Source of the DNA: Candidatus Hodarchaeota archaeon
GTDB lineage: Archaea; Asgardarchaeota; Heimdallarchaeia; Hodarchaeales; Hodarchaeaceae
Reading direction: 5' to 3'
Assembly: GCA_016840035.1 (NCBI GenBank)
Contig: JAEOTC010000055.1
Coordinates: 1-42,251, forward strand
Length of the DNA stretch: 42,251 nucleotides
The notes below the pieces were generated by a model that was not told where the DNA came from, searched no databases, and was given only the letters and a program-made list of their open reading frames with translations. The translations under genes and the position numbers were made by a program. This document shows, piece after piece, positions 5,547 through 35,399 of the stretch; position 1 is the first letter of the stretch, and every line of letters starts with the position of its first letter.

Positions 5547-6830
5547 ATGGCACAAAAGAGCATATATGAATTTTCTGCTAAAAAACTGCTTATGACAGAA
5601 TTGCCGAAGTATTTCCCATCGTATAATTACCATGGGAAACTTGCTGTTATAACTCCCGAAACGGACTGGGATAAATTGGTTGCTGAACATCCTTGGCTCA
5701 ATACGGACAAGCTTGCTGCAAAACCAGACCAACTTTTCGGTAAGCGAGGAAAGGCCAATCTATTATTACTAGATGCCGATCTTAATGGATTGAAAGCATT
5801 CATTACTGAAAGAATGAACAAAAAGATCGAGCTCGGTGGTATTAAAGGTACTCTTACTCGCTTCCTCGTTGAACCGTTTGTACCTCATGAGAAAGAGTTC
5901 TATGTCTCAATCACTTCTGATATGGGCAATGACACTGTTCATTTCTCCTTTGAGGGCGGAATCTTTGTGGAAGAAAACTGGGACAAAGTAACCCATGTAC
6001 CAGTTCCTATAGGAACTGATATTGATTCCTTTGATCTGGCAAGCAAACTACCTGATCTTGGTGACTTAAAAGACACCCTAGTACCCTTTATTAAAGGTGT
6101 ATTAAAAGTTTATATTGATCAAGATTTTGCTTTTCTCGAAATTAATCCCTTTGCTGTAACTGCGGATAAAACCGTGGTTCCTCTCGATCTAAAAGCGAAA
6201 TTAGATGACACAGCTAGCTTTCAACATCTTGATTCATGGGGTAATCCAGACAATCCGATCCAATTCCCCCGAGCATTTGGTCAAGTTCTTTCCAAAGAGG
6301 AACAATTCATTGCCGATCTCGATGAAAAGACGGGCGCATCATTAAAATTTACAATACTAAATAGAGATGCCCGTGTATGGACCATGGTTGCTGGTGGTGG
6401 TGGTTCAGTTGTGTATACAGACACAATTGCTGATATGGGTTTTGCCAAGGACCTGGGAAACTATGGGGAATATTCTGGCAACCCTAATAGAGAACATACT
6501 GAGCTTTATGCACAAACAGTAATTGATGTACTTACAGAACGACCTGATCCTCAAGGTAGACCAAAGGTTCTTCTTATTGGTGGCGGTATTGCTAACTTTA
6601 CAGATGTTAAAGCTACCTTTTTGGGCATAGTAGCGGCCTTACGTAAATCAGCTGATAAGCTCAAAGCAGCAAATGTCAAGATTTATGTTCGAAGAGGTGG
6701 TCCTAACGAAAAAGAAGGATTAAAACTGATGGAAGATGTTGGTAAGGAGATTGGAGTACCAATCGAAGTGTACGATCGTTATACACATATGACGCGCATC
6801 GTTCCATTATCACTCAAAGGAGATAGCTAA
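5547..6830 (+). CDS. aclB: ATP-citrate lyase, ATP-grasp/citrate-binding subunit
   Basis: KPDQLFGKRGK, EINP, AKLDDTA, WTMVAGGGGSVVYTD, NYGEYSGNP, IGGGIANFTDV and VRRGGPN are diagnostic ACL motifs. Confidence 0.95.
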   Translation: MAQKSIYEFSAKKLLMTELPKYFPSYNYHGKLAVITPETDWDKLVAEHPWLNTDKLAAKPDQLFGKRGKANLLLLDADLNGLKAFITERMNKKIELGGIKGTLTRFLVEPFVPHEKEFYVSITSDMGNDTVHFSFEGGIFVEENWDKVTHVPVPIGTDIDSFDLASKLPDLGDLKDTLVPFIKGVLKVYIDQDFAFLEINPFAVTADKTVVPLDLKAKLDDTASFQHLDSWGNPDNPIQFPRAFGQVLSKEEQFIADLDEKTGASLKFTILNRDARVWTMVAGGGGSVVYTDTIADMGFAKDLGNYGEYSGNPNREHTELYAQTVIDVLTERPDPQGRPKVLLIGGGIANFTDVKATFLGIVAALRKSADKLKAANVKIYVRRGGPNEKEGLKLMEDVGKEIGVPIEVYDRYTHMTRIVPLSLKGDS

Positions 6831-6836
6831 AGGAGG
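6831..6836 (+). promoter_or_regulatory. Shine-Dalgarno site of aclA
   Basis: AGGAGG directly after the aclB stop codon, 7 nt before the aclA ATG at 6844. Confidence 0.75.
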
Positions 6837-6843
6837 ACTAGTA

Positions 6844-8685
6844 ATGACAAACGGATTATTTAATCGTAATACTAAAGCCATTATTTATGGTTTTCAAAGA
6901 AACGCCATTCAAAGAATGCTTGATTTTGATTTTGTATGTAAAAGAGATACACCCTCTGTAGCTGCAGTCATTCGACCCTCCCAAACCGGTGCTATCGGTT
7001 ACCACAAGGTTTTTTGGGGTGGTAAAGAGATTGTTATACCTATTTATCGGAAATTCGATCTTGCAGTTAAAAGACATCCTGATGCAGATGTTGTAATCAA
7101 CTTCTCATCCTTCAGAAGTGCTTATCCTACAACTATGGAAGCCCTGAAAGCAGACACTATTAAGACTGTTGCAGTTATTGCTGAAGGAATTCCCGAACGT
7201 AGAAGTCGTGAAATGAGAAAATTAGCCCAAGAGACAGGTAAAGTGATAATTGGACCAGCCACAGTTGGTGGAATCCAAGCTGGCGCTTTTAAAATTGGTA
7301 ATACAGCTGGAACTATCGAAAATGTTGTTCTTTCAAAGCTTTATCGACCTGGAAGTGTTGGTTTTGTATCCAAAAGTGGAGGTATGAGTAATGAAATGAA
7401 CTTCGCTATTGCGCAGAATTCTGATGGTGTCTATGAAGGGATAGCTATCGGTGGTGATCGATATGCAGGTTCAACATTACTTGAACATCTCCTTAGATAC
7501 GAAGCTAATCCCAAGATTAAGATGATGGTCTGTCTTGGAGAAGTTGGTGGTACTGGAGAGATCGATATTGTCAATGCCGTTAAAGATGGTCGAATCACAA
7601 AACCTTTAGTGATGTGGTGCATTGGTACTTCTGCTAAACTGCTTCCTGCAGGACTTCAATTTGGTCATGCTGGCGCAATGGCAGGTAGTGATATGGAAAC
7701 AGCCCATGCTAAGAACAAAGCCTTAAAAGATGTGGGTGTCATTGTTCCTGACTCGTACGACGACTTTGGTGACAAAATTAAGGAAACTTTTGAAAAGCTA
7801 AAAACTGAAGGTAAAATTGATCCCGTGGACGAATTTGAACCACCAAAACTCCCAATGGATTATGCTCAAGCTGCAAAGCTTGGTCTGGTTAGAAGACCAA
7901 CCAATGTGATCAGTACTATCTCTGATGAGCGAGGGGACGTGCCCATGTTTGGAGGAAGTCCTAAAGTTGGGCTTGATACCATTGTTGCTGAAAATAAATC
8001 CCTTGGTTATACTATTGGACTGCTTTGGTTTAAGAAAGAATTACCAAAATTCGCTCAAGATTATATTGAGATGGTTGTTAAGTTAACATCTGACCATGGT
8101 CCAGCAGTAAGCGGTGCTCATAATGCAATAATAACAGCTCGTGCTGGTAAAGATTTAATGTCTTCACTAGCCACTGGAATTCTCGCAATAGGTCCCCGCT
8201 TTGGTGGTGCCATTTCTGATGCAGCAAAGTATATAAAACTTGCACTGGATAAAAAGATGAATCCTCAAGAATTTGTAGACTACATGAAGAATGTAGTGGG
8301 TATTAATATTCCTGGAATTGGACATCGGATTAAATCAGTCCAGAATCCTGATGTTCGTGTTAAATTATTGAAGGAATTCGTCTTGAATAACTTTGAGAAG
8401 CATCCATTTTTGGATTACGCCCTTGAAGTAGAAAAGATCACCACTTCAAAACGAAATAATCTTATTCTTAATGTCGATGGTTGCATTGGTATCTGCTTCA
8501 TGGATCTACTAGAGAACCTAGACTTGTCTGAAGAAGAGAAAGCTGATGTGATCGCTACAGAAATGCTGAACGGATTCTTTGTTCTCGGTAGAAGCATTGG
8601 TATGATGGGTCATATCTTTGATCAAAAAAGACAAAGAGCAGCTTTGTACCGTCAACCCTGGGATGAAATTCTTTTCGCTGATTAG
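6844..8685 (+). CDS. aclA: ATP-citrate lyase, CoA-binding/phosphohistidine + citryl-CoA lyase subunit
   Basis: QRMLDFDF, IIGPATVGG, KLYRPGSV, SKSGGMSNE, phospho-His motif QFGHAGA, and citryl-CoA lyase domain DHGPAVSGAHN / IPGIGHRIKS / NLILNVDG / LYRQPWDEI. Confidence 0.96.
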   Translation: MTNGLFNRNTKAIIYGFQRNAIQRMLDFDFVCKRDTPSVAAVIRPSQTGAIGYHKVFWGGKEIVIPIYRKFDLAVKRHPDADVVINFSSFRSAYPTTMEALKADTIKTVAVIAEGIPERRSREMRKLAQETGKVIIGPATVGGIQAGAFKIGNTAGTIENVVLSKLYRPGSVGFVSKSGGMSNEMNFAIAQNSDGVYEGIAIGGDRYAGSTLLEHLLRYEANPKIKMMVCLGEVGGTGEIDIVNAVKDGRITKPLVMWCIGTSAKLLPAGLQFGHAGAMAGSDMETAHAKNKALKDVGVIVPDSYDDFGDKIKETFEKLKTEGKIDPVDEFEPPKLPMDYAQAAKLGLVRRPTNVISTISDERGDVPMFGGSPKVGLDTIVAENKSLGYTIGLLWFKKELPKFAQDYIEMVVKLTSDHGPAVSGAHNAIITARAGKDLMSSLATGILAIGPRFGGAISDAAKYIKLALDKKMNPQEFVDYMKNVVGINIPGIGHRIKSVQNPDVRVKLLKEFVLNNFEKHPFLDYALEVEKITTSKRNNLILNVDGCIGICFMDLLENLDLSEEEKADVIATEMLNGFFVLGRSIGMMGHIFDQKRQRAALYRQPWDEILFAD

Positions 8686-8687
8686 AA

Positions 8688-9770: not shown

Positions 9771-9789
9771 TTTTCTTCCACCGAGATAC

Positions 9790-11652: not shown

Positions 11653-11765
11653 GGAATGTAGCTTAGAAATCAAAGATCTAATCTACTATTTACAAATTAC
11701 TAAAGATCCACCTCTAACTAGAGTAGTCAATTCAATGCTTCTTTCTTTCAGAGAATGTTGAGGGT

Positions 11766-12167: not shown

Positions 12168-12170
12168 AAT

Positions 12171-12392
12171 TCATGACTCTCCTTTGGTTAAAAAACTTCC
12201 GCATTCTTCACAATGGTACGCTTTGGTATACCCTATTGGGAGAGGGATAACCAAAAGTAATGCTATACGTAGTAAATGTGTTGCGCTACTAGCGGTATAA
12301 CATCTACACTCGGGACAATTAATAATTTCTGGTTTAAGAGATTTCCAAACCATAAATGAAAGGGTTCCTAATGCTACAGCCATAATCAACAC
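12171..12392 (-). CDS. Small membrane zinc-ribbon protein (zinc_ribbon_15/LITAF-like architecture)
   Basis: N-terminal hydrophobic helix, then CPEC - hydrophobic LLRIALLLVIPLPIG - YHCEECG. Confidence 0.6.
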   Translation of the reverse strand: MLIMAVALGTLSFMVWKSLKPEIINCPECRCYTASSATHLLRIALLLVIPLPIGYTKAYHCEECGSFLTKGES

Positions 12393-12405
12393 TTCTTTTT
12401 TTTCT

Positions 12406-12669
12406 TCAATTCATTCCTTTTGTTTTTCGTTCTTCGGCTTGTTTCTTAAAGTTCCTCAAGCTAGATGGAAAAACAACAATAAAAAGTATAAAAGCACCTA
12501 ATATCGGCGGAATAGGGGATGATCCCATTCCTTGCTCAAGAAATATATTTTCTATAACCGTCAAGGCGATAAATAACACAGTTGCGCCTGCAAGAGAGAT
12601 TATCAGAGGCAATCCATAAATAAACCATGTAGGGGTTTCTACAGTTTCTTTCTCCATTCTTTCAGTCAC
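12406..12669 (-). CDS. Small two-TM membrane protein
   Basis: 87 aa, two TM helices and a basic tail. GTG start with GAGGTGG RBS. Confidence 0.65.
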   Translation of the reverse strand: MTERMEKETVETPTWFIYGLPLIISLAGATVLFIALTVIENIFLEQGMGSSPIPPILGAFILFIVVFPSSLRNFKKQAEERKTKGMN

Positions 12670-12786
12670 ACTACCACCTCATAAAGATAATAACGATAGT
12701 TTAACCTGCTTGTCATAATCTGAAGCTTTTATATTTTTTGACTAAGAAAAATTGGGAGACCCATATCAAAAAAAGATATTAAACTT

Positions 12787-13785: not shown

Positions 13786-13856
13786 GATAATTAATGAGGA
13801 GAGGATATAACAATCTTCTTTTTGTACCTCTTGTTCTCATACTGCAATAATTCAGT

Positions 13857-15062
13857 CTAATCTGGAGTGCTTTGGTACTTTTGACTCAAACTAGGTTTCT
13901 TCCAACGATTTGAAAAGAAAATGATTACCGAAGGAAGAAATATTATCACAGCGAAGAGACCTAATGATCCTGGAAATACAACCTCAATAAAAATGCCACC
14001 TATAACTGGTGTGAATATTTGGGAAAGACTCTGAAGAGAATCAGCCACACCCATGATTTTACCACGATTTCGAATATCAGTTTTACTGCTAATTTCACTT
14101 GTGAGAGTGGGTCTAATTATACCTGCACCTATGGAAAAGAAACCCATAATTACAAACATATACCATCCAGAAAGAACAAAGATAATTTGAGTAAAAGCTA
14201 AAACAAGAGATATTTGTCCTATAATGAAAAGTTTTTCTCTCGACATAACATTCACTAGTCTAGGAAAGAAAATCAATTGGAACAATATCCGAATCAGGCC
14301 TACAAACATAAGATATAAACCCACTGTATCAGGACCTACTTTCAATTGATATTCGGAAAATAGTGCCAAATTAGCTGTGATTAAGGAGAATGAAAGAACG
14401 AAAGACAAGAAATAAAATAGAACGAGTTGCAATGTTGGGTTCGAAAATCCCTCGACCACATCCTTAATCGGAATAAAATCGTTCCTTGAGATTTTAAATT
14501 CTTTATCGTTGGTTACTGTCTCTTCTAGTAAGAAGAAAATCATGAAGAGAGTTATTCCTGAAATACCAGCAGCTAAAAATGAGGGTATGCTATAATCGAT
14601 TGTGGCTAGATATCCTCCTAAAGCAGGACCAACGAAAAACCCAATACCAAATGCTGTACTCATGTATCCGAATGCTTTGGTTTGGGTCTTTTTATCCTCA
14701 TGTCGAATAATATCTCCTAGATATGCTCTTGAGAGAGTCATATTACTTCCTAATAAACCATCAACAACGCGGGATAGGAGTATTATAAACAAAGAATTTG
14801 CCACTCCCAATAATATAAAGCCAACTACTGTCGAAAATTGGCTAATCAATAACAATGGTTTACGACCAAATTTATCGCTTAATTTTCCAATAATAGGAGC
14901 GGAAATAAATTGACATAAAGAAAAAGAAGCGACGATAATCCCCACCGCTATTGGTGAAGCACCCAAATCCGTAGCTAGGTAGGGTAGAAAGGGTAGGATT
15001 AAGCTCCAACCAAGTACTTCAGTAAAAATTATCAAATAGATCGTTAAATATTCTTTTTTCAT
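13857..15062 (-). CDS. MFS transporter, TetA/DHA1 drug:H+ antiporter-like
   Basis: 12 TM helices, motif A GKLSDKFGRKPLL, motif C GFFVGPALGG. Confidence 0.92.
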   Translation of the reverse strand: MKKEYLTIYLIIFTEVLGWSLILPFLPYLATDLGASPIAVGIIVASFSLCQFISAPIIGKLSDKFGRKPLLLISQFSTVVGFILLGVANSLFIILLSRVVDGLLGSNMTLSRAYLGDIIRHEDKKTQTKAFGYMSTAFGIGFFVGPALGGYLATIDYSIPSFLAAGISGITLFMIFFLLEETVTNDKEFKISRNDFIPIKDVVEGFSNPTLQLVLFYFLSFVLSFSLITANLALFSEYQLKVGPDTVGLYLMFVGLIRILFQLIFFPRLVNVMSREKLFIIGQISLVLAFTQIIFVLSGWYMFVIMGFFSIGAGIIRPTLTSEISSKTDIRNRGKIMGVADSLQSLSQIFTPVIGGIFIEVVFPGSLGLFAVIIFLPSVIIFFSNRWKKPSLSQKYQSTPD

Positions 15063-15327
15063 TGGATTGACCGTTTCAGTGTTAATTAACTAGAAGATAG
15101 GACTTTGAAAACTGTGAAATTCTCTTGCCATCAAGATTAGCAATTCTAGAGATTAGGAAAAAATGTTTTGAACTTGTTCTCCTCTATGCAGAATCGGCAG
15201 ATAGCCCATTAATAGTAGTAATTTCAGGATTAAATTCAATCAAAAGCTTTGAATTTTATGTTGTATCCAATTTTGATTATATAACTAAAGTTAGAATAAC
15301 TAAAGCTAAAAATAATACTGGTGGATA

Positions 15328-16530
15328 ATGTTGACCGAAGAACAAGTTAAGAAAGCAACTGCACACTTTGAGAACTTAGTTCGAGAACAACTCGAACGAG
15401 TAGAGAGAATGAAGAAAGAACCTGATTGGACAGATTTTTCGAGTCTTGATAAAATCATCATCGGAGCCTGTAGTGGAGATGGTATTGGACCAGCTATCAC
15501 TGAAGCTGCGATTATCGTCCTTAACTTTTTACTCGACTCTGAAATTAAGTCGGGAAAAGTTGAGATTAGAAAAATTGATGGATTAACAATAGAGAATCGA
15601 GTAAAAGTAATGAAAGCTATACCTGATGATGTTCTTGCTGAATTAAAAGAGTGTCATACAATATTGAAAGGTCCAACCACTACTCCTTGGAAAGGAAACA
15701 AATATGGCTGGCCTAATATTGAAAGTGCTAATGTATCGATGCGACGTGAATTAGATCTCTTCGCAAATGTTCGTCCAGTTCGTGTTCCAGAGAAAAACAT
15801 TGATTGGATGTTTTACCGGGAAAATACTGAAGGAGCATATGTTTTGGGAAGTAAAGGAGTAGATGTATCAGAAGATCTCGCAGTTGACTTCAAAGTAATC
15901 ACAAATCAAGGTTCAGATCGGATTATTCGTGCTGCATTTGAGTATGCTAGCAAGAATAATATCAACAAAGTAACGGTAGTAACCAAGGCCAATGTTGTTA
16001 AGCGCACTGATGGTAAATTTCTAGCCATAGCTGAACAAGTAGCAAAGGATTATCCTCAAGTTGAATGGGATGATTGGTATATTGATATTATGACAGCTAA
16101 GCTTATCGATCCAGCTCGTCAGAGTTCATTCCGTGTTATTACTGCGCCAAACCTCTACGGAGATATAATAACAGATGAGGCTGCACAGATTCAAGGCGGT
16201 CTAGGTACTGCTGGAGCAGCAAATATCGGTAAGCGATATTCTATGTTTGAAGCAGTTCATGGTAGCGCTCTTAAGATGGTAGACGAGGGTCGTGAAAAAT
16301 ATGCTGACCCTACGAGTATGATTAAAGCAGCATCTATGCTCTTGAATCACATTGGCTTTACTGAGAAAGCAGCAATGTTGGATAAAGCCATTGAAGTCTG
16401 TTCTCAGTATGAAAAGAAACTAGTCATCACAGGCCGTGATACTGGGGCAACTGGTGAAGAAATGGCCAATTATATCATTGAAACTATAAAATCACCTGAT
16501 CTTGAACAAAAATGGCAAGGTTATCAATAA
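15328..16530 (+). CDS. icd: Isocitrate dehydrogenase (isocitrate/isopropylmalate dehydrogenase family)
   Basis: GDGIGP, LKGPTTTP, substrate loop ESANVSMRR (S-x-N-x-x-x-R as in IDH rather than IPMDH), FANVRP, RENTEGAY, TKANVVK, PNLYGDIITD, FEAVHGSA. GGTGG RBS. Confidence 0.85.
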   Translation: MLTEEQVKKATAHFENLVREQLERVERMKKEPDWTDFSSLDKIIIGACSGDGIGPAITEAAIIVLNFLLDSEIKSGKVEIRKIDGLTIENRVKVMKAIPDDVLAELKECHTILKGPTTTPWKGNKYGWPNIESANVSMRRELDLFANVRPVRVPEKNIDWMFYRENTEGAYVLGSKGVDVSEDLAVDFKVITNQGSDRIIRAAFEYASKNNINKVTVVTKANVVKRTDGKFLAIAEQVAKDYPQVEWDDWYIDIMTAKLIDPARQSSFRVITAPNLYGDIITDEAAQIQGGLGTAGAANIGKRYSMFEAVHGSALKMVDEGREKYADPTSMIKAASMLLNHIGFTEKAAMLDKAIEVCSQYEKKLVITGRDTGATGEEMANYIIETIKSPDLEQKWQGYQ

Positions 16531-24499: not shown

Positions 24500-26431
24500 T
24501 TACGAGGCACTAACAGTATAACTTAGTTTTCCACCAGCAAGGAGTATTTCTCGCTCTCGTTCAGAGAAATCATAAGAAGTCTGAACGTCAAAATTCTGTG
24601 TTCGATTATGAACAATGATAGGTTGATTCTCCTTTAAGGCAGTTCTTGCTCCTTTAATTTCCAGAACATCCCCATCATTTATTCGATCATAATCAGCATT
24701 ATCCTTGAACGTTAAAGGCAAGATTCCAAAGTTCACAAGATTATCTCGATGGATTCGAGCAAAAGATTTGGTAAGTACTGTTTTTATACCAAGATACATT
24801 GGAGCTAAAGCTGCATGTTCGCGACTAGAACCCTGTCCGTAATTTTCACCACCAATGATAATACCTCCGCCTTCTTCTTTGCTTTTGAGTGCACGTTCAG
24901 GGAAAGTAGCATCTACTTGTTCAAACACATGCTTACTGATTTCTGGGAGATTAGATCGAAGAGGAAGGATTTTCGAACCTGCAGGCATGATATGATCTGT
25001 CGTTACGTCATCTTCTGCTTTGATTAACACTTTGAATTCAAAATTATCTTGGAGGGGTTGAAATTCAGGTAAAGGAGCAATATTTGGCCCACGGATAATT
25101 GCCACCTCTCCTGGTGTTTCAGAGGGAGGTAGAATCATCGAATCGTCAATTTCAATCTCTTTTGGAATTTCGATCTTAGGATACTCACCTAATTTTTTAG
25201 GATCGGTAAATTCCCCAAAAATTGCTGCAGCAACAGCTACTTCAGGACTAACCAAGTATGCGTTAGCACTCTTTGTCCCAGTACGGCCAAAGAAATTACG
25301 ATTAAATGTTCGAACAGCCACTGCATCAGTCTTTGGTGCAAAACCCATTCCAATACACGGTCCACAAGCACTCTCCAAAATTCGTGCTCCTGCGGTGATC
25401 GCATCAGCTAGTGTCCCATTTTTAGCAAGCTCCATCAGGACCTGTCGTGATCCAGGTGAAATTCCTAAAACCGTGTCAGAATGAATCTTTCGTCCTTTTA
25501 ACAACGCAGATACAGTTAACATATCTTTGAGAGAACTATTCGTGCAGGATCCGATAGCAACTTGATCCACTTTCATTCCATAGAGTTCGGATAAAGGAAC
25601 GACCTTCCCTGGTGAATGGGGTTTAGCTACAAGTGGTTCTAATTCGGAAAGATTAATTTCAATGATCTCATCATAATCTCCATCTTCTCCAGCTGGAAGT
25701 TCAACCCAATCTTTTTCACGATTTTGCCATTTCAAGAAGTCTTTAGTTATTTCATCAGATGGAAATATTGAGGTAGTTGCCCCTGTTTCTGCTCCCATAT
25801 TAGTAATAGTAGCTCTTTCTGGAACAGAGAGAGTTTTTATTCCTGGACCATAATATTCCAGGATCTTACCCACTCCACCTTTGACATTTATCCGGCGGAG
25901 TACCTCAAGGATTACATCTTTTGCTGCAACATAGTCAGGTAGTGAACCTGTAAGTTTCACTCCAACAATTTTTGGAGTTTTCAGGTAGAACGGCCCCCCA
26001 CCCATTGCAACAGCAACATCTAATCCACCTGCACCGATTGCAATTGATCCCATTCCTCCAGCTGTTGGAGTATGAGAGTCAGACCCGATTAATGTCTTAG
26101 AGGGGGTAGCAAATCGTTCCAGAAAGACTTGGTGACATATTCCATTTCCTGGTCTTGAAAACTGTATACCATACTTCGCAGCAACCGATTGTAGATATCG
26201 ATGGTCATCAGGATTTTTGAAATCAGATTGAGTTGTATTATGATCTACGATAGAAACGGATAATTCCGTTTTAACCTTATCAAGTCCCATAGCCTCGAAT
26301 TGAAGATAGGCCATGGTGCCCGTTGCATCTTGTGTCAGGGTATGATCAATACGAATACCGATCTCTTCTCCAACTTCATACTTCCCTTCCACAAGATGAT
26401 CTTGTAGAATTTTTTTAGCAATGGAAACCAT
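24500..26431 (-). CDS. acnA: Aconitate hydratase (single-chain, about 640 aa, Aquifex/clostridial type)
   Basis: TQDATGTMA, DHN, GICHQ, GSDSHT, [4Fe-4S] ligands IGSCTNS and SACGPCIGMG, NRNF, TTDHI, NYGQGSSREHAA. Confidence 0.92.
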   Translation of the reverse strand: MVSIAKKILQDHLVEGKYEVGEEIGIRIDHTLTQDATGTMAYLQFEAMGLDKVKTELSVSIVDHNTTQSDFKNPDDHRYLQSVAAKYGIQFSRPGNGICHQVFLERFATPSKTLIGSDSHTPTAGGMGSIAIGAGGLDVAVAMGGGPFYLKTPKIVGVKLTGSLPDYVAAKDVILEVLRRINVKGGVGKILEYYGPGIKTLSVPERATITNMGAETGATTSIFPSDEITKDFLKWQNREKDWVELPAGEDGDYDEIIEINLSELEPLVAKPHSPGKVVPLSELYGMKVDQVAIGSCTNSSLKDMLTVSALLKGRKIHSDTVLGISPGSRQVLMELAKNGTLADAITAGARILESACGPCIGMGFAPKTDAVAVRTFNRNFFGRTGTKSANAYLVSPEVAVAAAIFGEFTDPKKLGEYPKIEIPKEIEIDDSMILPPSETPGEVAIIRGPNIAPLPEFQPLQDNFEFKVLIKAEDDVTTDHIMPAGSKILPLRSNLPEISKHVFEQVDATFPERALKSKEEGGGIIIGGENYGQGSSREHAALAPMYLGIKTVLTKSFARIHRDNLVNFGILPLTFKDNADYDRINDGDVLEIKGARTALKENQPIIVHNRTQNFDVQTSYDFSEREREILLAGGKLSYTVSAS

Positions 26432-26576
26432 TTTTAGAATCCCTTAATTTAAATTTATGAAATCAATAATTAATAGATTTGTTAAATTGTGATAAACGAG
26501 AAAAGACCCTAGTTCCAATTTTATTAATTTTTTCCCGACTAGTTACAGAATAGAGGCTAAAAAGTAACTAAAAATT

Positions 26577-26591
26577 GGAAAAAAGAAAAAA
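26577..26591 (-). terminator. Oligo-T tract after hdrA-mvhD
   Basis: Minus strand reads TTTTTTCTTTTTTCC about 25 nt after the stop codon. Confidence 0.5.
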
Positions 26592-26616: not shown

Positions 26617-29007
26617 TCAGGCTGTAGCCTTTTCAGAAACATGTTTTGCCTTATGATTCTTTTTAGCGATTCCAGCCATCCTAGTAACAACATCAGCGAA
26701 CTTCTTTCCTTCAGCAGCGGACATCCATTCAATGATAAAGCGTTCGTCATCAATTCCTTGCTTTTTCATCCAGCGTCGTATCTTTCGTTCACGTTTTATT
26801 GCAAAATCGTTACCAGAAATATAGTGACAATCCTGAGGATGGCATCCTGTCAACATAACTGAACCTGCTCCAAGCTCAAACGCGCGCTTTATGAAATCAA
26901 CGTCAATACGACCAGAGCACATGACTCGAACAACTCTAGAATTCGTAGGATACTGGATACGACTCGTACCTGCTAGATCAGCACCTCCGTACGAACACCA
27001 ATTGCATGCGAAGATCATAACCTTTTCATCTGCATTATCACGTAGCGCGATATCAACTTGTCGTAATATCATCGCATCTGTGAAGTTCGTCATCATGATG
27101 GCATCTTGAGGACAATCTGCCGCACAAGTACCACATCCTTTACATAGAACGGGAATTACATGTGCTGGGGTCTTTTTCTTTTTATCTACAGTAATAGCGT
27201 TGTAGGGACATCGAGTAGCACAAATTCCACATGAATTACATAACTCTGCATTGACCACAGCGTATAAGGGCTCTACAGAAAATTCCCCTTTGGTTAAAAC
27301 TCTAGTAACTCGTCCAGCAGCTGCACTTGCTTGAGTAACTGCCTCACGAATATCTTTAGGTGATTCAGCTCCTCCAGCAATGAAGATTCCATCAGTTGGT
27401 GTGTCAACTGGTCGTAATTTCGGATGTGATTCAATATAATAATCATGAGTGTCTTTTGCTACAGGGAAGGGAATATTAGAACTTGGCCCCTCCGCACCAA
27501 TGGACAAGACCACCATTTCGAATTCACGATCTACTAGCTTTCCAATACGTGTATCTTCAACAGAGACAATTAAATTATTGTTCGGACCAACCTGTTCAAC
27601 TTGAGAAGGTCGTCCACGAACGTATTTAACACCCTCACGTCGTGAGCGTGTATAAAGTTCTTCAAATCCTTTTCCAAATGCACGAATGTCTATAAAGAAC
27701 ACAGAAACCTCTACATCAGGCCAATGTTCTTTTATCAGAAGTGTATCTTTGATACTCTCCATACAGCAGTAATTAGAACAGTATGGATTATACCGTTGAT
27801 CCCGTGAACCGACACACTGAATGAATGCTACACTCTTTGGTCGCTTCAAATCACTGGGACGAACGAGATCACCTGAAGTCGGACCTGCGGCGTTTATTAA
27901 TCTTTCAAATTCAAAAGTAGTGACTACATTTGGATATCGGCCCCAGCCATATTCGGGAATCTTGGAAGCATCGAACATTTCAAAGCCAGTAGAGATAATG
28001 ATGGTACCTACTTTATATTTATAGGTTTTAACTCTATCTTCATAATTAATGGCTTCTTTCTCACATGTACCCTTGCATTTCCCACAAGCTAGCACATCTA
28101 ATCCAAGACAATTGTCTGTGTCAATAATATAACTAGCTGGAACAGCTTGTGGATAAGGAATGTATATAGCTTTTCTCCAACCCAAATTACCAGAATACTC
28201 ATCTATTACATTAACGGGACAAATGTCTACACAATCGTTACAGGCTGTACACAAGTCTTCCTCTACATATCGGGGTTGTTTAGTGACTTCTACTTCAAAG
28301 TTCCCTACGTATCCAGAGATTTTTGTGACTTCAGCATTAGCAATTAGTGAGATATTATCGTGATTTCCAACATCAGCCATTTTAGGACCAAGAATACAGA
28401 TACTACAGTCCATTGTAGGGAATGTTTTGTCAATCAGTGCCATATTTCCCCCGATAGTGGGACTTTTTTCAACCATAACTACCTTATAATCATCTGCTAG
28501 ATCTAATCCAGCCTGAATCCCAGCAACGCCTCCACCAACAATTAAAACTCGTTTTTCAACTGGAACTACTGTAGCTTCTGCGGGTTCAAGCATTGCGGCT
28601 TTTGCAATCGCCATTTCAGTTAGCTCCATGGCTTTAACCGTAGCTTCTTCCTTCTCATGAAGATGTACCCATGAACATTGTTCTCGAATATTAGCAACTT
28701 CTACGACTTCTGGATTCATCCCACTTCTTTTCATCAATTTTTTCCATGTTGGTCCATGGAGACGGGGAGAACATGCAGAGACGACAATTTTTTCGATTCC
28801 TTGCTCCTTGATAGCAGTTTCAATCTCAACTTGACCCGGGTCAGAACAGGTGTAAGTATTTACTTGCACAAGTTCAACATTAGGCAAATCTTTGACTTCT
28901 TCTGCGATTTTGTCAATGTCCACTGATCCAGCTATGTTCTTTCCGCATTTGCAAAGGAATACTCCTACCTTTACATCTTGCTCAACATTATCTACGCTTT
29001 CTGTCAT
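26617..29007 (-). CDS. hdrA: Heterodisulfide reductase subunit A fused to MvhD (FAD, multiple [4Fe-4S], [2Fe-2S])
   Basis: HdrA motifs: VGVFLCKCG, ACSPRLH, NIREQCSWVH, GGGVAG, DKTFPTMDCSICIL, FEFERL, QCVGSRD..YCSNYCCMESIK, HPKLRPV, and ferredoxin motifs. MvhD motifs: CNWCSYGGADLAG, RVMCSGR, GCHPQDCHY. Confidence 0.95.
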   Translation of the reverse strand: MTESVDNVEQDVKVGVFLCKCGKNIAGSVDIDKIAEEVKDLPNVELVQVNTYTCSDPGQVEIETAIKEQGIEKIVVSACSPRLHGPTWKKLMKRSGMNPEVVEVANIREQCSWVHLHEKEEATVKAMELTEMAIAKAAMLEPAEATVVPVEKRVLIVGGGVAGIQAGLDLADDYKVVMVEKSPTIGGNMALIDKTFPTMDCSICILGPKMADVGNHDNISLIANAEVTKISGYVGNFEVEVTKQPRYVEEDLCTACNDCVDICPVNVIDEYSGNLGWRKAIYIPYPQAVPASYIIDTDNCLGLDVLACGKCKGTCEKEAINYEDRVKTYKYKVGTIIISTGFEMFDASKIPEYGWGRYPNVVTTFEFERLINAAGPTSGDLVRPSDLKRPKSVAFIQCVGSRDQRYNPYCSNYCCMESIKDTLLIKEHWPDVEVSVFFIDIRAFGKGFEELYTRSRREGVKYVRGRPSQVEQVGPNNNLIVSVEDTRIGKLVDREFEMVVLSIGAEGPSSNIPFPVAKDTHDYYIESHPKLRPVDTPTDGIFIAGGAESPKDIREAVTQASAAAGRVTRVLTKGEFSVEPLYAVVNAELCNSCGICATRCPYNAITVDKKKKTPAHVIPVLCKGCGTCAADCPQDAIMMTNFTDAMILRQVDIALRDNADEKVMIFACNWCSYGGADLAGTSRIQYPTNSRVVRVMCSGRIDVDFIKRAFELGAGSVMLTGCHPQDCHYISGNDFAIKRERKIRRWMKKQGIDDERFIIEWMSAAEGKKFADVVTRMAGIAKKNHKAKHVSEKATA

Positions 29008-29009
29008 CG

Positions 29010-29879
29010 TTACTTTCTCCTACTTTGGGCAGTCTCTCTAAGTCGCTTGATTTTCTGTGTGAATCCTTCCCGTGGATTATTTACAAACTCCCCACATACA
29101 ATCCTCCGTTTTTCGTGAGAATATTCTGCTTCATGAGGAGGACAGTCTTTATCAATCACAACTTGCTCTCGAAGCCATTCTAACATCTTAACAGCATCAC
29201 CTAATTTATTTTTCCGTCCATATTGAGTGAAACAGGGAGCTAAAATTTCGATGAAACTGAAACCGGGATTGTCCATGGCTTTAAAGATACTTTCTCTTAA
29301 ACGGAGAGTATCATATCCAGGCCAACGGGCTACAAAAGAAGCTCCTGCAGCAGCAGCTAATGAAACTAAGTTAAATGGAGGTTCAATATTTCCATATGGA
29401 GAGGTTGATGTGAAGTCTCCAATAGAGGTTGTCGGGGCTAATTGTCCACCAGTCATTCCGTAAATACCATTGTTATTACACAGGACATTGATCTCAATAT
29501 TTCGTCGACATGCATGTACAAAGTGGTTTCCACCAATTGCAAAGAGATCTCCGTCTCCTGATAGTACGAAGACTTCAAGATCAGGATTTGCCAATTTTAA
29601 TCCTGTGGCAAATGGAATGGCCCGGCCATGAGTTGCATGGAAGGCAGGTGCTTTGAAACATCCACTAGTTCTACCTGTACATCCGATTCCTGACACTATT
29701 GCATAATCCTTTGGTGTTAATCCTCTTTCGACTAAGCAAGTAGTAATCGAGGTAATAGCTGTTCCAATTAGACACCCTGCACAGAAAATAAAGCGATTAA
29801 GATTTAATCGGCCATGTAAAGGATGTTCCTCTGGGTAATCAAGTTCTGGAGTACCCCATTCTTCTTCTGATGATGTCAT
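29010..29879 (-). CDS. korB: 2-oxoacid (probably 2-oxoglutarate):ferredoxin oxidoreductase beta subunit
   Basis: FCAGC, SGIGCTGR, HATHGRA, TPP motif GDGD...NNGIYGMTGGQ, and PC. ATGA overlap with korA. Confidence 0.9.
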   Translation of the reverse strand: MTSSEEEWGTPELDYPEEHPLHGRLNLNRFIFCAGCLIGTAITSITTCLVERGLTPKDYAIVSGIGCTGRTSGCFKAPAFHATHGRAIPFATGLKLANPDLEVFVLSGDGDLFAIGGNHFVHACRRNIEINVLCNNNGIYGMTGGQLAPTTSIGDFTSTSPYGNIEPPFNLVSLAAAAGASFVARWPGYDTLRLRESIFKAMDNPGFSFIEILAPCFTQYGRKNKLGDAVKMLEWLREQVVIDKDCPPHEAEYSHEKRRIVCGEFVNNPREGFTQKIKRLRETAQSRRK

Positions 29880-31039
29880 CTGTTAACCTCCTTCATTAGA
29901 TTTTCATAGATGAAACTCGGAGCAAACGGTATCGTAGTCGGCACCAGTAATCCTGAAACTGAAAAACCGAGATGTCTAAAGCGTTCAACTTCTCGGATGA
30001 GTTGACCATAATTCATCTCCGTAACAAGAACTTTCTTAACTCCCAACTTCCCTAGCCTCTCCATAAGTTCATCAGGGAATGGCCATAATGTTTTAAGTCT
30101 AACTAAGCCGACTTTGTGACCCTTTTTCCGAGCTTGTTCAACTGCTTCTGGATTACCACGTGCATTGATACCATATGAGAGAATGACTGTTTCCGCATCC
30201 TCAACGTATAATTCTTCCCAATCATTAATATCAGGCCGTGCTCTTCTTATTTTGTCACACAGGCGTTTTACTAGGGTAATTTCCGTTTCAGGGGTCATAT
30301 CGGGACTCCCAGTGATATCATGAGTTAATCCAGTGACATAGAAGTTGTAATCAGTTCCTGCTGTTGCCATTCCGGGAATTAAGTCATCGTCAATAATTTC
30401 AAAGGGTTGGTACTTATCAGGAGGGACTTGTGGTGGTTTTCTATTGATTACTTCAAAATTTGAATGATAAGAAACTGGTTCCATCATCTGTCCAACTATA
30501 CCATCCGAAGCAACTATAACGGGTGTTCGATACTTTTCGGCTAAATTAAATGCCCTAACTGAAAAATCATAACATTCCTGAACAGTAGAGGGAGCGAGTA
30601 CAATTGTTTCATAATCTCCATGGGAAAGATAACGAGTTTGCATCACATCAGATTGTGAGGCTTTTGTAGGTTGACCAGTACTTGGACCACCCCGCATTAC
30701 GGTAACTATGACTAATGGAGCTTCTAACATAAATCCTAATCCAACAGTTTCTGCCATTAAAGATAATCCAGGACCAGAAGTTGCGGTCATGGCTTTTGCT
30801 CCCGCATAAGAAGCACCGACGACAGCCACAATTGAGGCTAACTCATCTTCCATCTGGACAAATGAACCTCCTACTTGAGGTAATCGTCTTGACATATAAT
30901 GGGCTATTTCAGAAGAAGGGGTAATTGGATAACCTGCAAAAAAACGACAACCAACGGCAATAGCTCCTTCCGCAGATGCATAATTTCCTGTGGTTAATAT
31001 TAATTTTGATTTAGAAGATTTCTTACTTGCACTAGCCAT
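29876..31039 (-). CDS. korA: 2-oxoacid (probably 2-oxoglutarate):ferredoxin oxidoreductase alpha subunit
   Basis: FFAGYPITPSSE, QMEDE, TATSGPGLSLM, RGGPSTGQPT, SQSD, TGLTHD, EMNYGQ. Confidence 0.92.
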   Translation of the reverse strand: MASASKKSSKSKLILTTGNYASAEGAIAVGCRFFAGYPITPSSEIAHYMSRRLPQVGGSFVQMEDELASIVAVVGASYAGAKAMTATSGPGLSLMAETVGLGFMLEAPLVIVTVMRGGPSTGQPTKASQSDVMQTRYLSHGDYETIVLAPSTVQECYDFSVRAFNLAEKYRTPVIVASDGIVGQMMEPVSYHSNFEVINRKPPQVPPDKYQPFEIIDDDLIPGMATAGTDYNFYVTGLTHDITGSPDMTPETEITLVKRLCDKIRRARPDINDWEELYVEDAETVILSYGINARGNPEAVEQARKKGHKVGLVRLKTLWPFPDELMERLGKLGVKKVLVTEMNYGQLIREVERFRHLGFSVSGLLVPTTIPFAPSFIYENLMKEVNR

Positions 31040-31321
31040 TTAATCATCCTCCTGTGGTACGTCCCTTTCGATTACCATAATAGATACTGTGGGACAAATC
31101 CGTTCGCATTGCTTGCACCCCGTACATTTATCTAGTGCTATTACCTTAACATAATGGAGCATACGACTATTGAAATTGTCCATGTCAATCTCTAAGACAT
31201 CGCATGGACAAAATTCGACACATAATTCACACCCATCACAAATTTCTGAATAGACCTTAATCTTATACTCTTTATCCGCTCGTGGTGGATCGAGCATGGG
31301 CGTTCTTTTGGAATTCAACAT
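31040..31321 (-). CDS. korD: 2x[4Fe-4S] ferredoxin, oxidoreductase delta subunit
   Basis: CDGCELCVEFCP and CTGCKQCERICP; its stop codon abuts the korA ATG. Confidence 0.9.
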   Translation of the reverse strand: MLNSKRTPMLDPPRADKEYKIKVYSEICDGCELCVEFCPCDVLEIDMDNFNSRMLHYVKVIALDKCTGCKQCERICPTVSIMVIERDVPQEDD

Positions 31322-31606
31322 TTACTTTCCTCTTTGTGGTATTTGAATCGTCAATTCTAATCTACTTGGCGAATTATAAATCCTCTATTTTCATCTTAAT
31401 TGTAATCAAGATTTGATGATGAGGTTTTTAAATCTGTTTCTCGATCAAAGACATATGATAGATTATTCAGATATGAGGAATCTACACTATAATTATGCAT
31501 ATTTACATTATAACTACTTACTAATCTCCAAAATGTTTAAATTTCTCAACAAAGTCCTCTATCTGAAAGCGTTAAACATGCTTTGTAACAAAGGAATGAC
31601 TGATTT

Positions 31607-32170
31607 ATGAAAGTAAAATTCCGTTTTTCGGGTCGAGGAGGGCAGGGTATCAAATTTCTAGGTAGCGCTCTTGTCCGTGTCGCGATGGCCGCTAACCTAA
31701 ATGCAACTCTTACTGTCGATTATACCCCATCTGTCCGTGGTGGACCTATTTTTAGTGATGTTGTGATAAGTTCAGATCCAATAGCTTACCCTTATTGTGA
31801 AGCTGACGCTGATTACTTCATTGCTCTTGATTCAAAGGGTTTCGAACGTGCTGCGGAATGCATATGTGAAAATACAACCTCTTATATTGATGCAGACTCA
31901 ATTGATGAAACCGCAGAAAAAATTATCACAAAGGGGAAAATGCACAGAGTTCCCATTACACGTCGAGCCGATGAACAAAAGGTTACAGGAGCAGTTAATG
32001 TTTTATCGTTAGGTTTTCTATCAGAACATCTTAAAACTACTGAAAAACCAAATTTTACGGAAGATCAATACATTCAAGTATTCAATAGTATGAGAAATCC
32101 GGAAAATAATATCAAGACTTTCCAATTCGGAAAAGATCTCTACTCAGAGACTATTAGCAGTCCTTCTTAA
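31607..32170 (+). CDS. korC: 2-oxoacid:ferredoxin oxidoreductase gamma subunit
   Basis: RFSGRGGQGI, YTPSVRGG, DVVISSDPIAYP, NVLSLG. Divergent from korD. Confidence 0.88.
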   Translation: MKVKFRFSGRGGQGIKFLGSALVRVAMAANLNATLTVDYTPSVRGGPIFSDVVISSDPIAYPYCEADADYFIALDSKGFERAAECICENTTSYIDADSIDETAEKIITKGKMHRVPITRRADEQKVTGAVNVLSLGFLSEHLKTTEKPNFTEDQYIQVFNSMRNPENNIKTFQFGKDLYSETISSPS

Positions 32171-33251: not shown

Positions 33252-35399
33252 CTATTTAAGATAGACAGTGTTTTCCTTAACTCTGATGGCTGATTCTTCT
33301 GGTAAAGACGATAACCAATCCAGGAATTCGACCGTATTAGAGAAACCCATGTAATCTATGAATTCATCCTTAGTAATTTTGTCAATTCTTTTCGAAAGTT
33401 TCTCCAGTTTAACATCGAGATTTGCATTAGATCTCTCTTTCTTTTGAGATGATTGATCTTCAAGGATGATAACATCCTCTTCGGATATATCAATTATTTC
33501 TGATGAATCAATTGTAGTTGTTTCAATCAGTCTTGGTTGGTCGGTACTTACTTCAGGTTGTTCGTCATCAATATAAAAAGAATCATCTACACCAGAAAGT
33601 AGAAGTTTTGGTTTAGAGTCGTCTTCTCCCTGTGTTAATACAAAATTTGGATTATCTTCAACTGCAAGGACATTTGACATACGGAAATTATAGTAGTCAT
33701 AAAATTTGGATTGAACTTTCATCATTCGATCTAAATCGTTAAGAATTGCTTGTTTGTTTCCTTCTGCCACATCTATCCCAAAAATTTTCAACATCAATCC
33801 TTTTGGGGTTTCTAAAGCTGATATAAAGGGCATATTAAGGGCAAAATAACGGCCTTCATGCTCTATTTCTGAAGCTGTGATGAAGGGCATTTTAATGTTA
33901 AAATATTTAGCTTCTTTATCATCAGGTAAGTCACGTTTCACGTCAATAGCTTCTATTGATCCCATTTTGAATAACATTGATTTTCCTTCTTCGATAACTT
34001 TAATCCCTGGAAAATTAAACTCGGTTTTGGATTCACTGATATTAAGGTTATAGCTGTTTTTCATCATCTGTAAATTCGATTCAAGCTTATCTATCCCCAT
34101 AGAATTAAACTTCTCTTTATAGATTTGAAAGGAGGATTTGACATTGTCAACCAATTCCTCTTTTGATGTAATTCCTAGATTAAGCTTTGTGATGTCAAGA
34201 GAATTAAGATTCTCTGAATTCATCCGCTTTGAAAGCGCGGTCCACTCTTTTTTGGGCAATATAAAGGTTGCTTTATTCGTAGCTTCCTTTTTTATTCGAC
34301 CAAGAGTATCTTTCACATTTATAGTCAAATCTCCTATTGCTTCAACTGTAACAATGTCTTGAGAAGAAGTAATAGGGACTAGTATCGAATTTTTTCCTGC
34401 AGAGAGATTAGAAGAACCCTTTTTTATTAATGTAAGCGATTTTTTAGGCGTAAACACATCCTCAGCAACTTGGAATTCTGACTGATTCAACTTCTCAGCC
34501 ATTTCCCTTGTCTTTAAAATTGATTTACTGTATAATTTCTCCAGATAAGGAACTTCGTTATCTCGGATGACAAACAGTATTATTGAAGCTAAGAACAGGA
34601 AAGGAATAAACGAATTCCAAAACGGATCCTTAAATTCTTTAAAAATGAATTCAAACACTATTAAAGTTAATGTTGCACCAAATGTATGATCTCGAAAACT
34701 CGCAAGAGAATTCCGTCGTTGAATGAAATTTGAGAGAGGATTATACGAGTAGGGTAATAATGAAACAATCAGATAAGCTACTAATGCATAAAAAATCGTT
34801 TCTTCCCATATTTCACCAAAAACGGGTGTTTCTTGTTTTAGGATATCAAATGCTACTAGAAGATAAAGTGTAATTCCCATCACCCAGAAACCTCGAAATA
34901 GACTCTTAATAAATGCCTGGTATCCATCAAATCCATAGTTCTTCAACAAAGATATCTTAAAACTATTTAGGAATATTCCAAACAGCAATGTGATAATTAG
35001 AATAAATGATTCAAAATCTAAATAAGATTGTTCAAATGGAAGTAAATACTGGAAAAGGATTTCTTCTTTTCCTACGAAAAAACCAATCAATAGAGAGATA
35101 ATAAACAGTTTAATGGTAGACCCTAGAATATGAATATCTGCTTTTATTCTCTTTCTTTCTATATTGCTTAAGACCAAGAAAAAAATGGTAAAGAAAAAAG
35201 AAAGGGCACGAAACATCGGTTCGACTTTGAAGAAGATTGATGTACAGAACCAGAAGGCAAGGGATAACAAATAGGCTCTATCCAAAGGCCCGCGTGGTTC
35301 AAGAAAATCAGTTACGGCTTTAGTTGAATATCTATTGAGATATTGTGCAGTATCAAAACTTGGAATACTCATTTGATCGTATCCTGCAATATGTGTCAT
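33252..35399 (-). CDS. Hypothetical polytopic membrane protein with beta-repeat region, acidic linker and small C-terminal domain
   Basis: 715 aa; about 8 N-terminal TM helices, repeated MPFIxAxE-like units, D/E-rich linker. Confidence 0.75.
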   Translation of the reverse strand: MTHIAGYDQMSIPSFDTAQYLNRYSTKAVTDFLEPRGPLDRAYLLSLAFWFCTSIFFKVEPMFRALSFFFTIFFLVLSNIERKRIKADIHILGSTIKLFIISLLIGFFVGKEEILFQYLLPFEQSYLDFESFILIITLLFGIFLNSFKISLLKNYGFDGYQAFIKSLFRGFWVMGITLYLLVAFDILKQETPVFGEIWEETIFYALVAYLIVSLLPYSYNPLSNFIQRRNSLASFRDHTFGATLTLIVFEFIFKEFKDPFWNSFIPFLFLASIILFVIRDNEVPYLEKLYSKSILKTREMAEKLNQSEFQVAEDVFTPKKSLTLIKKGSSNLSAGKNSILVPITSSQDIVTVEAIGDLTINVKDTLGRIKKEATNKATFILPKKEWTALSKRMNSENLNSLDITKLNLGITSKEELVDNVKSSFQIYKEKFNSMGIDKLESNLQMMKNSYNLNISESKTEFNFPGIKVIEEGKSMLFKMGSIEAIDVKRDLPDDKEAKYFNIKMPFITASEIEHEGRYFALNMPFISALETPKGLMLKIFGIDVAEGNKQAILNDLDRMMKVQSKFYDYYNFRMSNVLAVEDNPNFVLTQGEDDSKPKLLLSGVDDSFYIDDEQPEVSTDQPRLIETTTIDSSEIIDISEEDVIILEDQSSQKKERSNANLDVKLEKLSKRIDKITKDEFIDYMGFSNTVEFLDWLSSLPEESAIRVKENTVYLK

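Follow-up and report, generated by a model that had tools for sequence, protein, structure and literature searches.

The window analyzed here (contig C281, GenBank accession No. JAEOTC010000055.1; 42,251 nt) belongs to a 4.3-Mb, 87% complete metagenome-assembled genome (MAG) of a Candidatus Hodarchaeota archaeon. It carries a tight gene cluster in which three genes of a 2-oxoacid:ferredoxin oxidoreductase (Kor) are followed by a gene encoding a fusion of the flavoprotein HdrA with MvhD (hdrA/mvhD), and the fourth kor gene lies next to this cluster on the opposite strand. The nearest public relatives are "Candidatus Hodarchaeota" MAGs (Asgard archaea, class Heimdallarchaeia), in which HdrA is 96% identical. 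The features of the locus are as follows.

31607..32170, plus strand: korC, gamma subunit, 187 aa (P0005); PF01558, 1.8e-20; divergent from korD
31322..31606, no strand: divergent korD/korC intergenic region, 285 nt; TTTATAA at 31380-31374, some 55 nt before the korD ATG
31040..31321, minus strand: korD, delta subunit, 2x[4Fe-4S] ferredoxin-like, 93 aa (P0001); two CxxCxxCxxxCP motifs
29876..31039, minus strand: korA, alpha subunit, 387 aa (P0002); POR_N and PFOR_II domains
29010..29879, minus strand: korB, beta subunit, thiamine pyrophosphate (TPP)-binding, 289 aa (P0003); TPP_enzyme_C domain
26617..29007, minus strand: hdrA-mvhD fusion, 796 aa (P0004); HdrA part at residues ~1-659, MvhD at residues ~660-783 (~27030-26660)
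~26571..26591, minus strand: oligo-T tract (T6-C-T6, then T5), read from the sequence, 26 nt past the hdrA-mvhD stop

The korD stop directly abuts the korA start (0 nt), korA and korB overlap by 4 nt (ATGA), and the ATG of hdrA/mvhD is located 2 nt past the korB TAA, with a GGAG inside the 3' end of korB. This spacing and the T tract behind it had been described in an earlier note on this DNA, and on re-reading all the coordinates hold. A single transcription unit, korD-korA-korB-hdrA/mvhD, is the best explanation of such a layout. The oligo-T tract is likely an archaeal transcription end, and a putative promoter role may be assigned to the korD/korC intergenic region with its TTTATAA. The same note had listed the kor module as korDAB; these three genes are real, but the divergent korC had been overlooked. 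As korC is present, the idea that HdrA replaces a missing gamma subunit is ruled out for the window.

All subunits of the four-subunit KorDABC/OorDABC composition are encoded, i.e., alpha, beta (TPP), gamma, and delta (2x[4Fe-4S]). KorA scored above the curated threshold for alpha subunits of 2-oxoacid:acceptor oxidoreductases (NF006412, 491 bits; cut-off 411), and among solved structures it is closest to 1YD7 and 8YS5 (2-oxoglutarate synthase alpha). The best model for KorB was of the OorB type (NF007207, 235 bits, under the cut-off of 364). The best NCBIfam models were the 2-oxoacid:ferredoxin oxidoreductase gamma subunit and then OorC for KorC, and OorD and OGOR_delta for KorD, all below cut-off. 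All eight cysteines of KorD are invariant in an alignment of 31 orthologues. The closest solved matches of this protein are the polyferredoxin modules FwdF/FmdF/MvhB, and several of the matching chains sit in entries which also hold HdrA and MvhD chains (7BKB, 9SW6, 9SFI).

Residues 11-659 of the fusion protein align with residues 3-654 of the Methanothermococcus HdrA (5ODC_A; E 2e-216), through the N-terminal, thioredoxin-reductase-like, inserted, and C-terminal ferredoxin domains, and the HdrA chains of 8RVU, 9SFI, and 7BKB match comparably. The MvhD domain (PF02662, FlpD/MvhD; residues 663-778, E 1e-42) aligns with solved MvhD chains. The earlier claim that this HdrA keeps its FAD motif, Fe-S ligands, and the FEFER and CCMESIK segments was borne out: the GxGxxG motif (G158-G163), all Cys motifs, E368 (FEFER), and K420 (CCMESIK) are invariant in an alignment of 66 sequences, and in the MvhD domain C668, C671, C697, C722, and C727 are so, too. 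The counterparts of E368 and K420 in 5ODC_A are E356 and K409, a pair located near the flavin. Judged by its sequence, HdrA-MvhD is best explained as a complete, canonical HdrA flavoprotein, for which bifurcating activity is predicted. Its best NCBIfam model, by a wide margin, was HdrA2 (NF040770), with 1078 bits, just under the cut-off of 1100. Some homologous genes (loci L078, L079, L081-L083, L090, L115, and L118) contain one in-frame TGA, at about codon 195-200 of hdrA/mvhD, which aligns with the second Cys of the DCSIC motif or with the adjacent position; in these bacterial and some Heimdallarchaeia homologues it probably encodes selenocysteine, and the window protein has a Cys there.

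Conservation and rearrangement of the kor-hdrA linkage

Orthologous loci, defined by an HdrA of at least 70% identity and the presence of upstream sequence, numbered 33 in the public genome collection; they came from Hodarchaeales and from MAGs labelled Promethearchaeota/Promethearchaeia (Loki-), Thor- or Hermodarchaeota. In all 33 loci korB lies immediately upstream of hdrA/mvhD, and in 32 of them the gap is at most 22 nt or the genes overlap. Since this tight spacing was kept despite divergence of the proteins to 70-96% identity and changed flanking genes, the arrangement is far beyond chance. The earlier note had suggested a comparison of korDAB-hdrA/mvhD synteny across Asgard and other archaea, and considered an adjacency unique to one genome as grounds for abandoning its reading. 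With adjacency in 33 of 33 loci, and with the rearranged variants described below, such uniqueness is ruled out.

The place of korC differs between groups. In Hodarchaeales it is inverted or not nearby: loci L039 and L041 have it in the same divergent position as the window, some others have no korC within 7 kb, and a family of small upstream ORFs (c31) found in loci without a nearby korC is not KorC-like. In the Loki-type loci korC is co-directional (korC-korD-korA-korB-hdrA/mvhD), and the whole unit is located between a methylmalonyl-CoA mutase gene and an opposite-strand gene for the alpha subunit of an ADP-forming acyl-CoA synthetase. Genes of Ras/Roc-family small GTPases (cluster c10; L053 3967-4524) recur a few kb upstream of kor in these loci. 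Two contigs from MAGs labelled Nanopelagicaceae (L067) and Desulfobacterales (L068) also bear an Asgard-type korCDAB-hdrA/mvhD. The former is probably mis-binned, because its flanking genes are common to Loki-type MAGs; the latter (70% identity, korB-hdrA gap of 267 nt, unique flanks) could be mis-binned or result from a transfer.

Among 400 sampled genomes of the phylum, an orthologue of the fused clade was present in 15 of 21 and 2 of 2 genomes of two Hodarchaeales-type families, and in 37 of 135 genomes of another Asgard family. At the genus level, KorA and HdrA orthologues are both present in 14 genomes and both missing from 5 (71-93% complete), and in the 3 mismatched genomes the genes are cut by contig ends. 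The two genes are retained or missing together across the genus, the genomes of which are related and do not constitute independent samples. That hdrC/hdrB had escaped notice behind hdrA in the sampled loci of the fused clade was excluded, as the downstream ORF families (c45, c46, c51, c19, c16, c25, c32, and c52) show no similarity to Hdr, and none to Mvh or Frd.

In other lineages the linkage occurs within longer or re-ordered operons. Loci of family f4 (Heimdallarchaeia) have the order korD-korA-korB-korC-hdrA-mvhD-mvhG-mvhA-hycI-hdrC-hdrB, followed by genes for an Fe-S protein and for a flavoprotein matched best by the model of the thiol:fumarate reductase TfrA. In family f3 the order is korA-korB-korC-mvhD-FeS-ShyB/ShyC-like module-hdrA-hdrC-hdrB, and the same Fe-S/flavoprotein pair follows; the module resembles sulfhydrogenase beta/gamma subunits of the NAD(P)H type, and f3 is the only place where an NAD(P)H module was seen in a kor operon. 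Family f6 has overlapping genes, korD-korA-korB::korC-hdrA/mvhD-hdrC-hdrB, and family f9 has hdrCB-hdrA/mvhD-korD-korA-korB-korC. An apparent KorB-KorC fusion of 504 aa is encoded at L140 (G050:C9, 4935-6449), in a korD-korA-korBC-hdrA/mvhD-hdrC-hdrB operon. G017, which belongs to the same genus as the window genome, carries korD-korA-korB-hdrA/mvhD-hdrC-hdrB, and on its other side (L145, G017:C59:7000-24573, 8655-15834) korC lies 485 nt upstream of hdrCB (390 aa)-hdrA (668 aa)-mvhD-mvhG-mvhA. In G001 (L144, G001:C7, 7090-14203), of the same genus, korC likewise stands beside hdrCB-hdrA-mvhD-mvhG-mvhA. Five bacterial MAGs (including Phycisphaerae, Anaerolineales, and Thermoanaerobaculia) have korDAB(C) followed, in this order, by genes for a 950-aa HdrA-like protein, MvhD, an HdrCB fusion, and HdrA/MvhD. 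The earlier note had suggested a high-potential partner, HdrBC or an enzyme similar to thiol:fumarate reductase, encoded elsewhere. In f3, f4, f6, and G017 such genes belong to the same operon, and in the window species the partner can be named only as a candidate (see below).

A quick maximum-likelihood tree of HdrA (LG+G4), rooted on the Mvh-linked paralogue of the window genome and built without methanogen and gammaproteobacterial sequences, placed the Hodarchaeales and Loki-type fused proteins in one clade (SH-aLRT 100), with a bacterial group as its sister (91). The polyferredoxin-linked clade described below branches next, and the kor-linked proteins of f3 and f4 fall outside. It follows that the Kor linkage is either ancient and was lost in places, or the product of repeated recruitment.

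Neighbouring genes and redox genes elsewhere in the genome

Three further features of the window concern enzymes of the tricarboxylic acid (TCA) cycle.

24500..26431, minus strand: aconitate hydratase, 643 aa; NF005558, 969 bits (cut-off 612); next gene downstream of hdrA-mvhD
15328..16530, plus strand: gene of the isocitrate/isopropylmalate dehydrogenase (icd) family; best models LEU3_arch and NADP-IDH, all below cut-off
5547..8685, plus strand: aclB/aclA-like ATP-citrate lyase (ACL) pair; a SucC-like protein of 427 aa, and a protein of 613 aa, SucD-like at the N-terminus and citryl-CoA lyase/citrate synthase-like at the C-terminus

The aconitase gene starts 185 nt past the hdrA stop on the same strand, beyond the T tract, and forms its own transcription unit. 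The acl-like pair and the icd-family gene are located 10-21 kb from the kor operon, in separate transcription units. Together with SdhAB and fumarase on other contigs (SdhCDAB on C278, SdhAB and fumarase on C54), the genes sharing the window with kor make up most of a TCA or reverse-TCA (rTCA) gene set in the MAG. Three ORFs of the window, all on the minus strand (33252-35399, 715 aa; 8889-9797, 302 aa; 4351-5307, 318 aa), had no NCBIfam match, and the first of them had no Pfam match either.

As the earlier note had stated, the 42-kb window contains no hdrB, hdrC, mvhA or mvhG; searches with the CCG and NiFe families and with tblastn gave matches only on other contigs. Neither tfrAB/frdAB nor flxABC is present in the window. 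The note had called this HdrA an orphan, which is correct for the locus and not for the genome: the genome-wide search that it proposed located hdrBC, mvhAG, and further HdrA paralogues on contig C114. Three sets were distinguished there, i.e., hdrC-hdrB-hdrCB-large HdrA-mvhD; hycI-mvhG-mvhA-hdrA/mvhD-hdrC-hdrB, the HdrA/MvhD of which is 34% identical to the kor-linked protein; and an additional mvhD with a truncated hdrA. Two of these sets include hdrC/hdrB. The 87%-complete genome yielded no close orthologues of the kor-linked hdrC/hdrB of G017 or of the second Mvh set of that species, the best matches (39-43% identical) being those on C114, and the three proteins of the f3 NAD(P)H module had no match in the genome. 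A lone 390-aa HdrC/HdrB-like fusion (Fer4_8 and two CCG domains) is encoded beside a CN-hydrolase gene, distant from any hdrA (G000:C292:22504-23676).

Proposed electron flow and competing explanations

The conserved unit would join an enzyme working near the ferredoxin potential to the flavoprotein which generates or uses up such electrons by bifurcation, and the operons of relatives add a disulfide reductase and a mid-potential module. These loci are read most simply as an HdrA system of three arms, in which Kor occupies the low-potential one. From the gene anatomy, the conservation of cofactor ligands, a linkage that is conserved and co-varies, and the longer operons of relatives, we hold with moderate confidence that Kor serves the low-potential arm of an HdrA-based bifurcating or confurcating system expressed as one transcription unit. 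The HdrA FAD would be the flavin-based bifurcation/confurcation centre, and the low-potential arm would reach Kor most simply via the 2x[4Fe-4S] protein KorD in place of free ferredoxin. In solved methanogen supercomplexes, the polyferredoxin modules FwdF, FmdF, and MvhB dock on HdrA, and the wiring of KorD would resemble the FmdF/MvhB link between formylmethanofuran dehydrogenase and HdrA. The high-potential arm would consist of the HdrC/HdrB disulfide-reductase module, in relatives tied to a TfrA-like fumarate reductase, and the middle arm would lead via MvhD to an [NiFe] Mvh hydrogenase or to an NAD(P)H module. In the window species the operon would be reduced to Kor and HdrA-MvhD, with the candidate HdrCB and MvhAG encoded on C114.

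Such a system might run in either direction. In the reductive mode, H2 or NAD(P)H would drive fumarate reduction and succinyl-CoA carboxylation 1:1; in the oxidative mode, the electrons of 2-oxoglutarate and of a high-potential donor would be confurcated to H2. Reductive use is consistent with ACL, icd, and aconitase in the window and with the TfrA-like enzyme in the f3 and f4 operons, and the two reductions would match 1:1. Oxidative, confurcating use is consistent with the physiology of cultured Hodarchaeales and Lokiarchaeia, which are peptide-fermenting, H2-producing syntrophs with highly expressed 2-oxoacid:ferredoxin oxidoreductases (OFORs), and with the position of the Loki-type loci among genes of the catabolic route from succinyl-CoA to propionate. 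The earlier note had read the locus as a candidate electron-bifurcating synthase module, with the confurcating mode as an alternative. This reading is partly supported: the operon, the conserved adjacency, and the partners in relatives agree with it, the synthase direction being one of two possible modes and the docking of Kor a weakly supported prediction.

Several observations weigh against the proposed coupling. In the window species the kor operon lacks hdrCB, mvhAG, and frd, and the sole HdrCB/MvhAG set found, in a genome that is 87% complete, has its own HdrA-MvhD paralogue (34%), with HdrC/HdrB only 39-43% identical to the kor-linked ones of G017. The specificity of Kor for 2-oxoglutarate is suggested by family matches, mostly below the equivalog cut-offs, and by gene context, i.e., aconitase, icd, and acl in the window, methylmalonyl-CoA mutase in Loki-type loci, and the TfrA-like flavoprotein in f3 and f4. 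Two Asgard families have hdrA/mvhD-hdrC-hdrB without kor, and in 30 loci, mostly of Bathyarchaeia and including two Thorarchaeota-labelled MAGs (L080-L114), a gene for a 311-aa polyferredoxin lies directly upstream of hdrA/mvhD. Closely related HdrA-MvhD fusions thus work without Kor, and free ferredoxin could therefore mediate. The protein encoded upstream of hdrA/mvhD in Bathyarchaeia (c1) had been considered as HdrB, which was ruled out, as it is a polyferredoxin; Methanosarcina hdrA2 has a polyferredoxin neighbour of the same kind. The earlier note had also proposed a multimer model of Kor with HdrA-MvhD. Predicted as a complex, HdrA-MvhD and KorD scored an ipSAE of 0.55 (runs 0.57, 0.50, and 0.55; best of three controls 0.00), with contact agreement of at least 71% and a partner pLDDT of at least 78. 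Of 80 solved complexes 58 reached the mark, as did 2 of 110 mismatched pairs, and among those passing at 0.60 or less were only 7 of the 80 but both mismatches. In this score range a pass is wrong more often than it is right, and the predicted docking gains weak support from it. As the pass may echo the solved HdrA-polyferredoxin complexes, we still only infer that KorD docks on HdrA. Finally, coupling in kor-hdrA clusters is a proposal drawn from genes and, for the published bacterial ones, from co-expression.

Part of this evidence would fit co-regulation without a complex, in which HdrA-MvhD, with HdrBC encoded elsewhere, forms a soluble ferredoxin-dependent (hetero)disulfide reductase of the HdrA2B2C2 kind that re-oxidises or supplies the free ferredoxin of Kor, co-transcription only balancing expression. 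HdrA2 is the best curated family of the fusion protein (1078 bits), the clades nearest to it that lack kor have hdrA/mvhD-hdrC-hdrB operons or polyferredoxin-hdrA/mvhD pairs, the complex score of 0.55 lends a complex weak support, and Methanosarcina hdrA2 is likewise encoded apart from hdrB2C2. However, the kor link persists in no fewer than five different gene orders, archaeal and bacterial, and the pair is lost as a unit in the genus, which exceeds what would be expected of a generic ferredoxin user, and none of at least seven other OFOR paralogues in the genome adjoins hdrA. Moreover, the F420H2-dependent reaction of HdrA2 is unlikely here, because the 87%-complete genome yielded neither CofH (TIGR03551) nor FrhB-type F420 proteins (FrhB_FdhB_C, PF04432). 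We consider this explanation unlikely on balance, yet a serious contender.

A smaller probability is given to HdrA-MvhD as a non-bifurcating acceptor subunit, the flavin of which would gather two single electrons of Kor and pass them to one acceptor, making the enzyme a 2-oxoglutarate:X oxidoreductase. Flavoprotein subunits of this sort are known from the NADP-dependent KorABC of Azoarcus, the NADH-dependent phenylglyoxylate dehydrogenase PadEFGHI, and pyruvate:NADP oxidoreductase. An operon of Kor and HdrA-MvhD alone, as in the window species and most orthologous loci, would suit it, as would the fermentative life of cultured relatives with their highly expressed OFORs. Yet this HdrA retains every cluster ligand of the bifurcating enzyme, both ferredoxin domains, and E368/K420, it has no fused or adjacent NAD(P)-binding module, and in relatives the unit gains HdrCB and a third redox module, so that we regard the acceptor-subunit explanation as improbable. 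That the adjacency is functionally meaningless, a mere inherited gene order, is hardly credible, given a linkage conserved at 45-75% protein identity, with changing flanks, re-ordered operons, co-loss in the genus, and presence in bacteria.

The coupling of Kor to the low-potential arm may be extended to a physical Asgard supercomplex of Kor and HdrA-MvhD, with KorD as the low-potential arm, HdrCB as the high-potential arm (in some lineages feeding a soluble TfrA-like fumarate reductase), and Mvh or an NAD(P)H module in the middle; this stronger version we regard as doubtful. If it were true, the two redox steps flanking succinate in the TCA cycle would be energetically coupled 1:1, and, run backwards, the complex would allow syntrophic Asgard archaea to oxidise succinate and 2-oxoglutarate to H2 without membrane-driven reverse electron transport. 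Synthesis of 2-oxoglutarate demands electrons of very low potential and anaerobic succinate oxidation an energy input, and how anaerobes pay for them is a long-standing question. Hodarchaeales and Lokiarchaeia, in which the operon is common, stand closest to eukaryotes among archaea, and the coupling hypothesis bears on hydrogen-based syntrophy models of eukaryote origin. As both groups now have cultured members, it is directly testable, and the natural variants (minimal, with HdrCB, with Mvh, with the NAD(P)H module, and with the Tfr-like reductase) offer ready constructs for reconstitution.

Comparison with known systems

Full-text literature searches found no report of a kor-hdrA linkage in Asgard archaea, and the supplementary text of the Hodarchaeales isolation preprint contains no Hdr or oxoglutarate entries. 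The closest published counterparts are the rTCA clusters of tubeworm symbionts (Ca. Endoriftia and the Escarpia symbiont) and Thioflavicoccus mobilis, with the order frdB-frdA-hdrC-hdrB-korD-korA-korB-korC-hdrA-flxD-flxC-flxB-flxA-aclB-aclA-idh (PMC6315080; PMC11636981). These gammaproteobacterial clusters are co-expressed (Rubin-Blum et al. 2019, PMC6315080; Mitchell et al. 2024, PMC11636981), and a complex of Flx-Hdr, Kor, and thiol:fumarate reductase was proposed to shuttle bifurcated electrons to the 2-oxoglutarate:ferredoxin oxidoreductase (OGOR), with fumarate reduction as the exergonic partner (PMC6315080; PMC11636981). The kor-hdrA coupling hypothesis is therefore already published for gammaproteobacteria, as genomic and transcriptomic inference only. 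The window resembles these clusters in having kor genes directly followed by hdrA and an MvhD/FlxD-type protein, FlxD being a protein of the MvhD type, and in having aclBA and idh-family genes nearby (here 10-21 kb off). It differs in its Asgard host, in the fusion of MvhD to HdrA, in the inverted korC, and in an operon devoid of flxABC, hdrBC, and tfr/frd; the relatives of its host are peptide-fermenting syntrophs, not autotrophs.

In comparison with OorDABC/KorABDG enzymes (8YS5/8YS6; NF006412, NF007205-7), the delta, alpha, beta, and gamma subunits have the expected domains and alpha scores above its cut-off, whereas the gamma gene stands apart in inverted orientation, a gene for a 796-aa flavoprotein follows korB, and beta, gamma, and delta score below the equivalog cut-offs. 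The HdrA2 of Methanosarcina acetivorans (NF040770; HdrA2B2C2) shares the fused HdrA-MvhD architecture and is the top curated model, but the score here is below the 1100-bit cut-off, the upstream neighbour is Kor and not a polyferredoxin, and F420 biosynthesis and binding genes were not found in the 87%-complete genome.

With the methanogen MvhAGD-HdrABC and Fdh/Mvh-Hdr-Fmd(Fwd) supercomplexes (5ODC, 7BKB, 8RVU, 9SW2-9SW6, 9SFI) the system shares a full-length HdrA with all cofactor ligands, the MvhD domain, and the resemblance of KorD to FmdF, FwdF, and MvhB, which pass the low-potential electrons of HdrA straight to the CO2-reducing enzyme. It differs from them in employing a TPP-dependent 2-oxoacid oxidoreductase in place of formylmethanofuran dehydrogenase, in an operon without hdrBC and hydrogenase, and in a host which is not a methanogen. 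The Asgard operon is a new, pared-down archaeal variant of the proposed kind of system, and its linkage, kept in dozens of genomes, suggests that in Hodarchaeales, as proposed for the tubeworm symbionts, an enzyme of the TCA cycle is wired to a bifurcation system. If so, a bifurcating flavoprotein wired to a TPP-dependent oxoacid oxidoreductase would represent a new type of bifurcating system, comparable to the supercomplex of Hdr with formylmethanofuran dehydrogenase.

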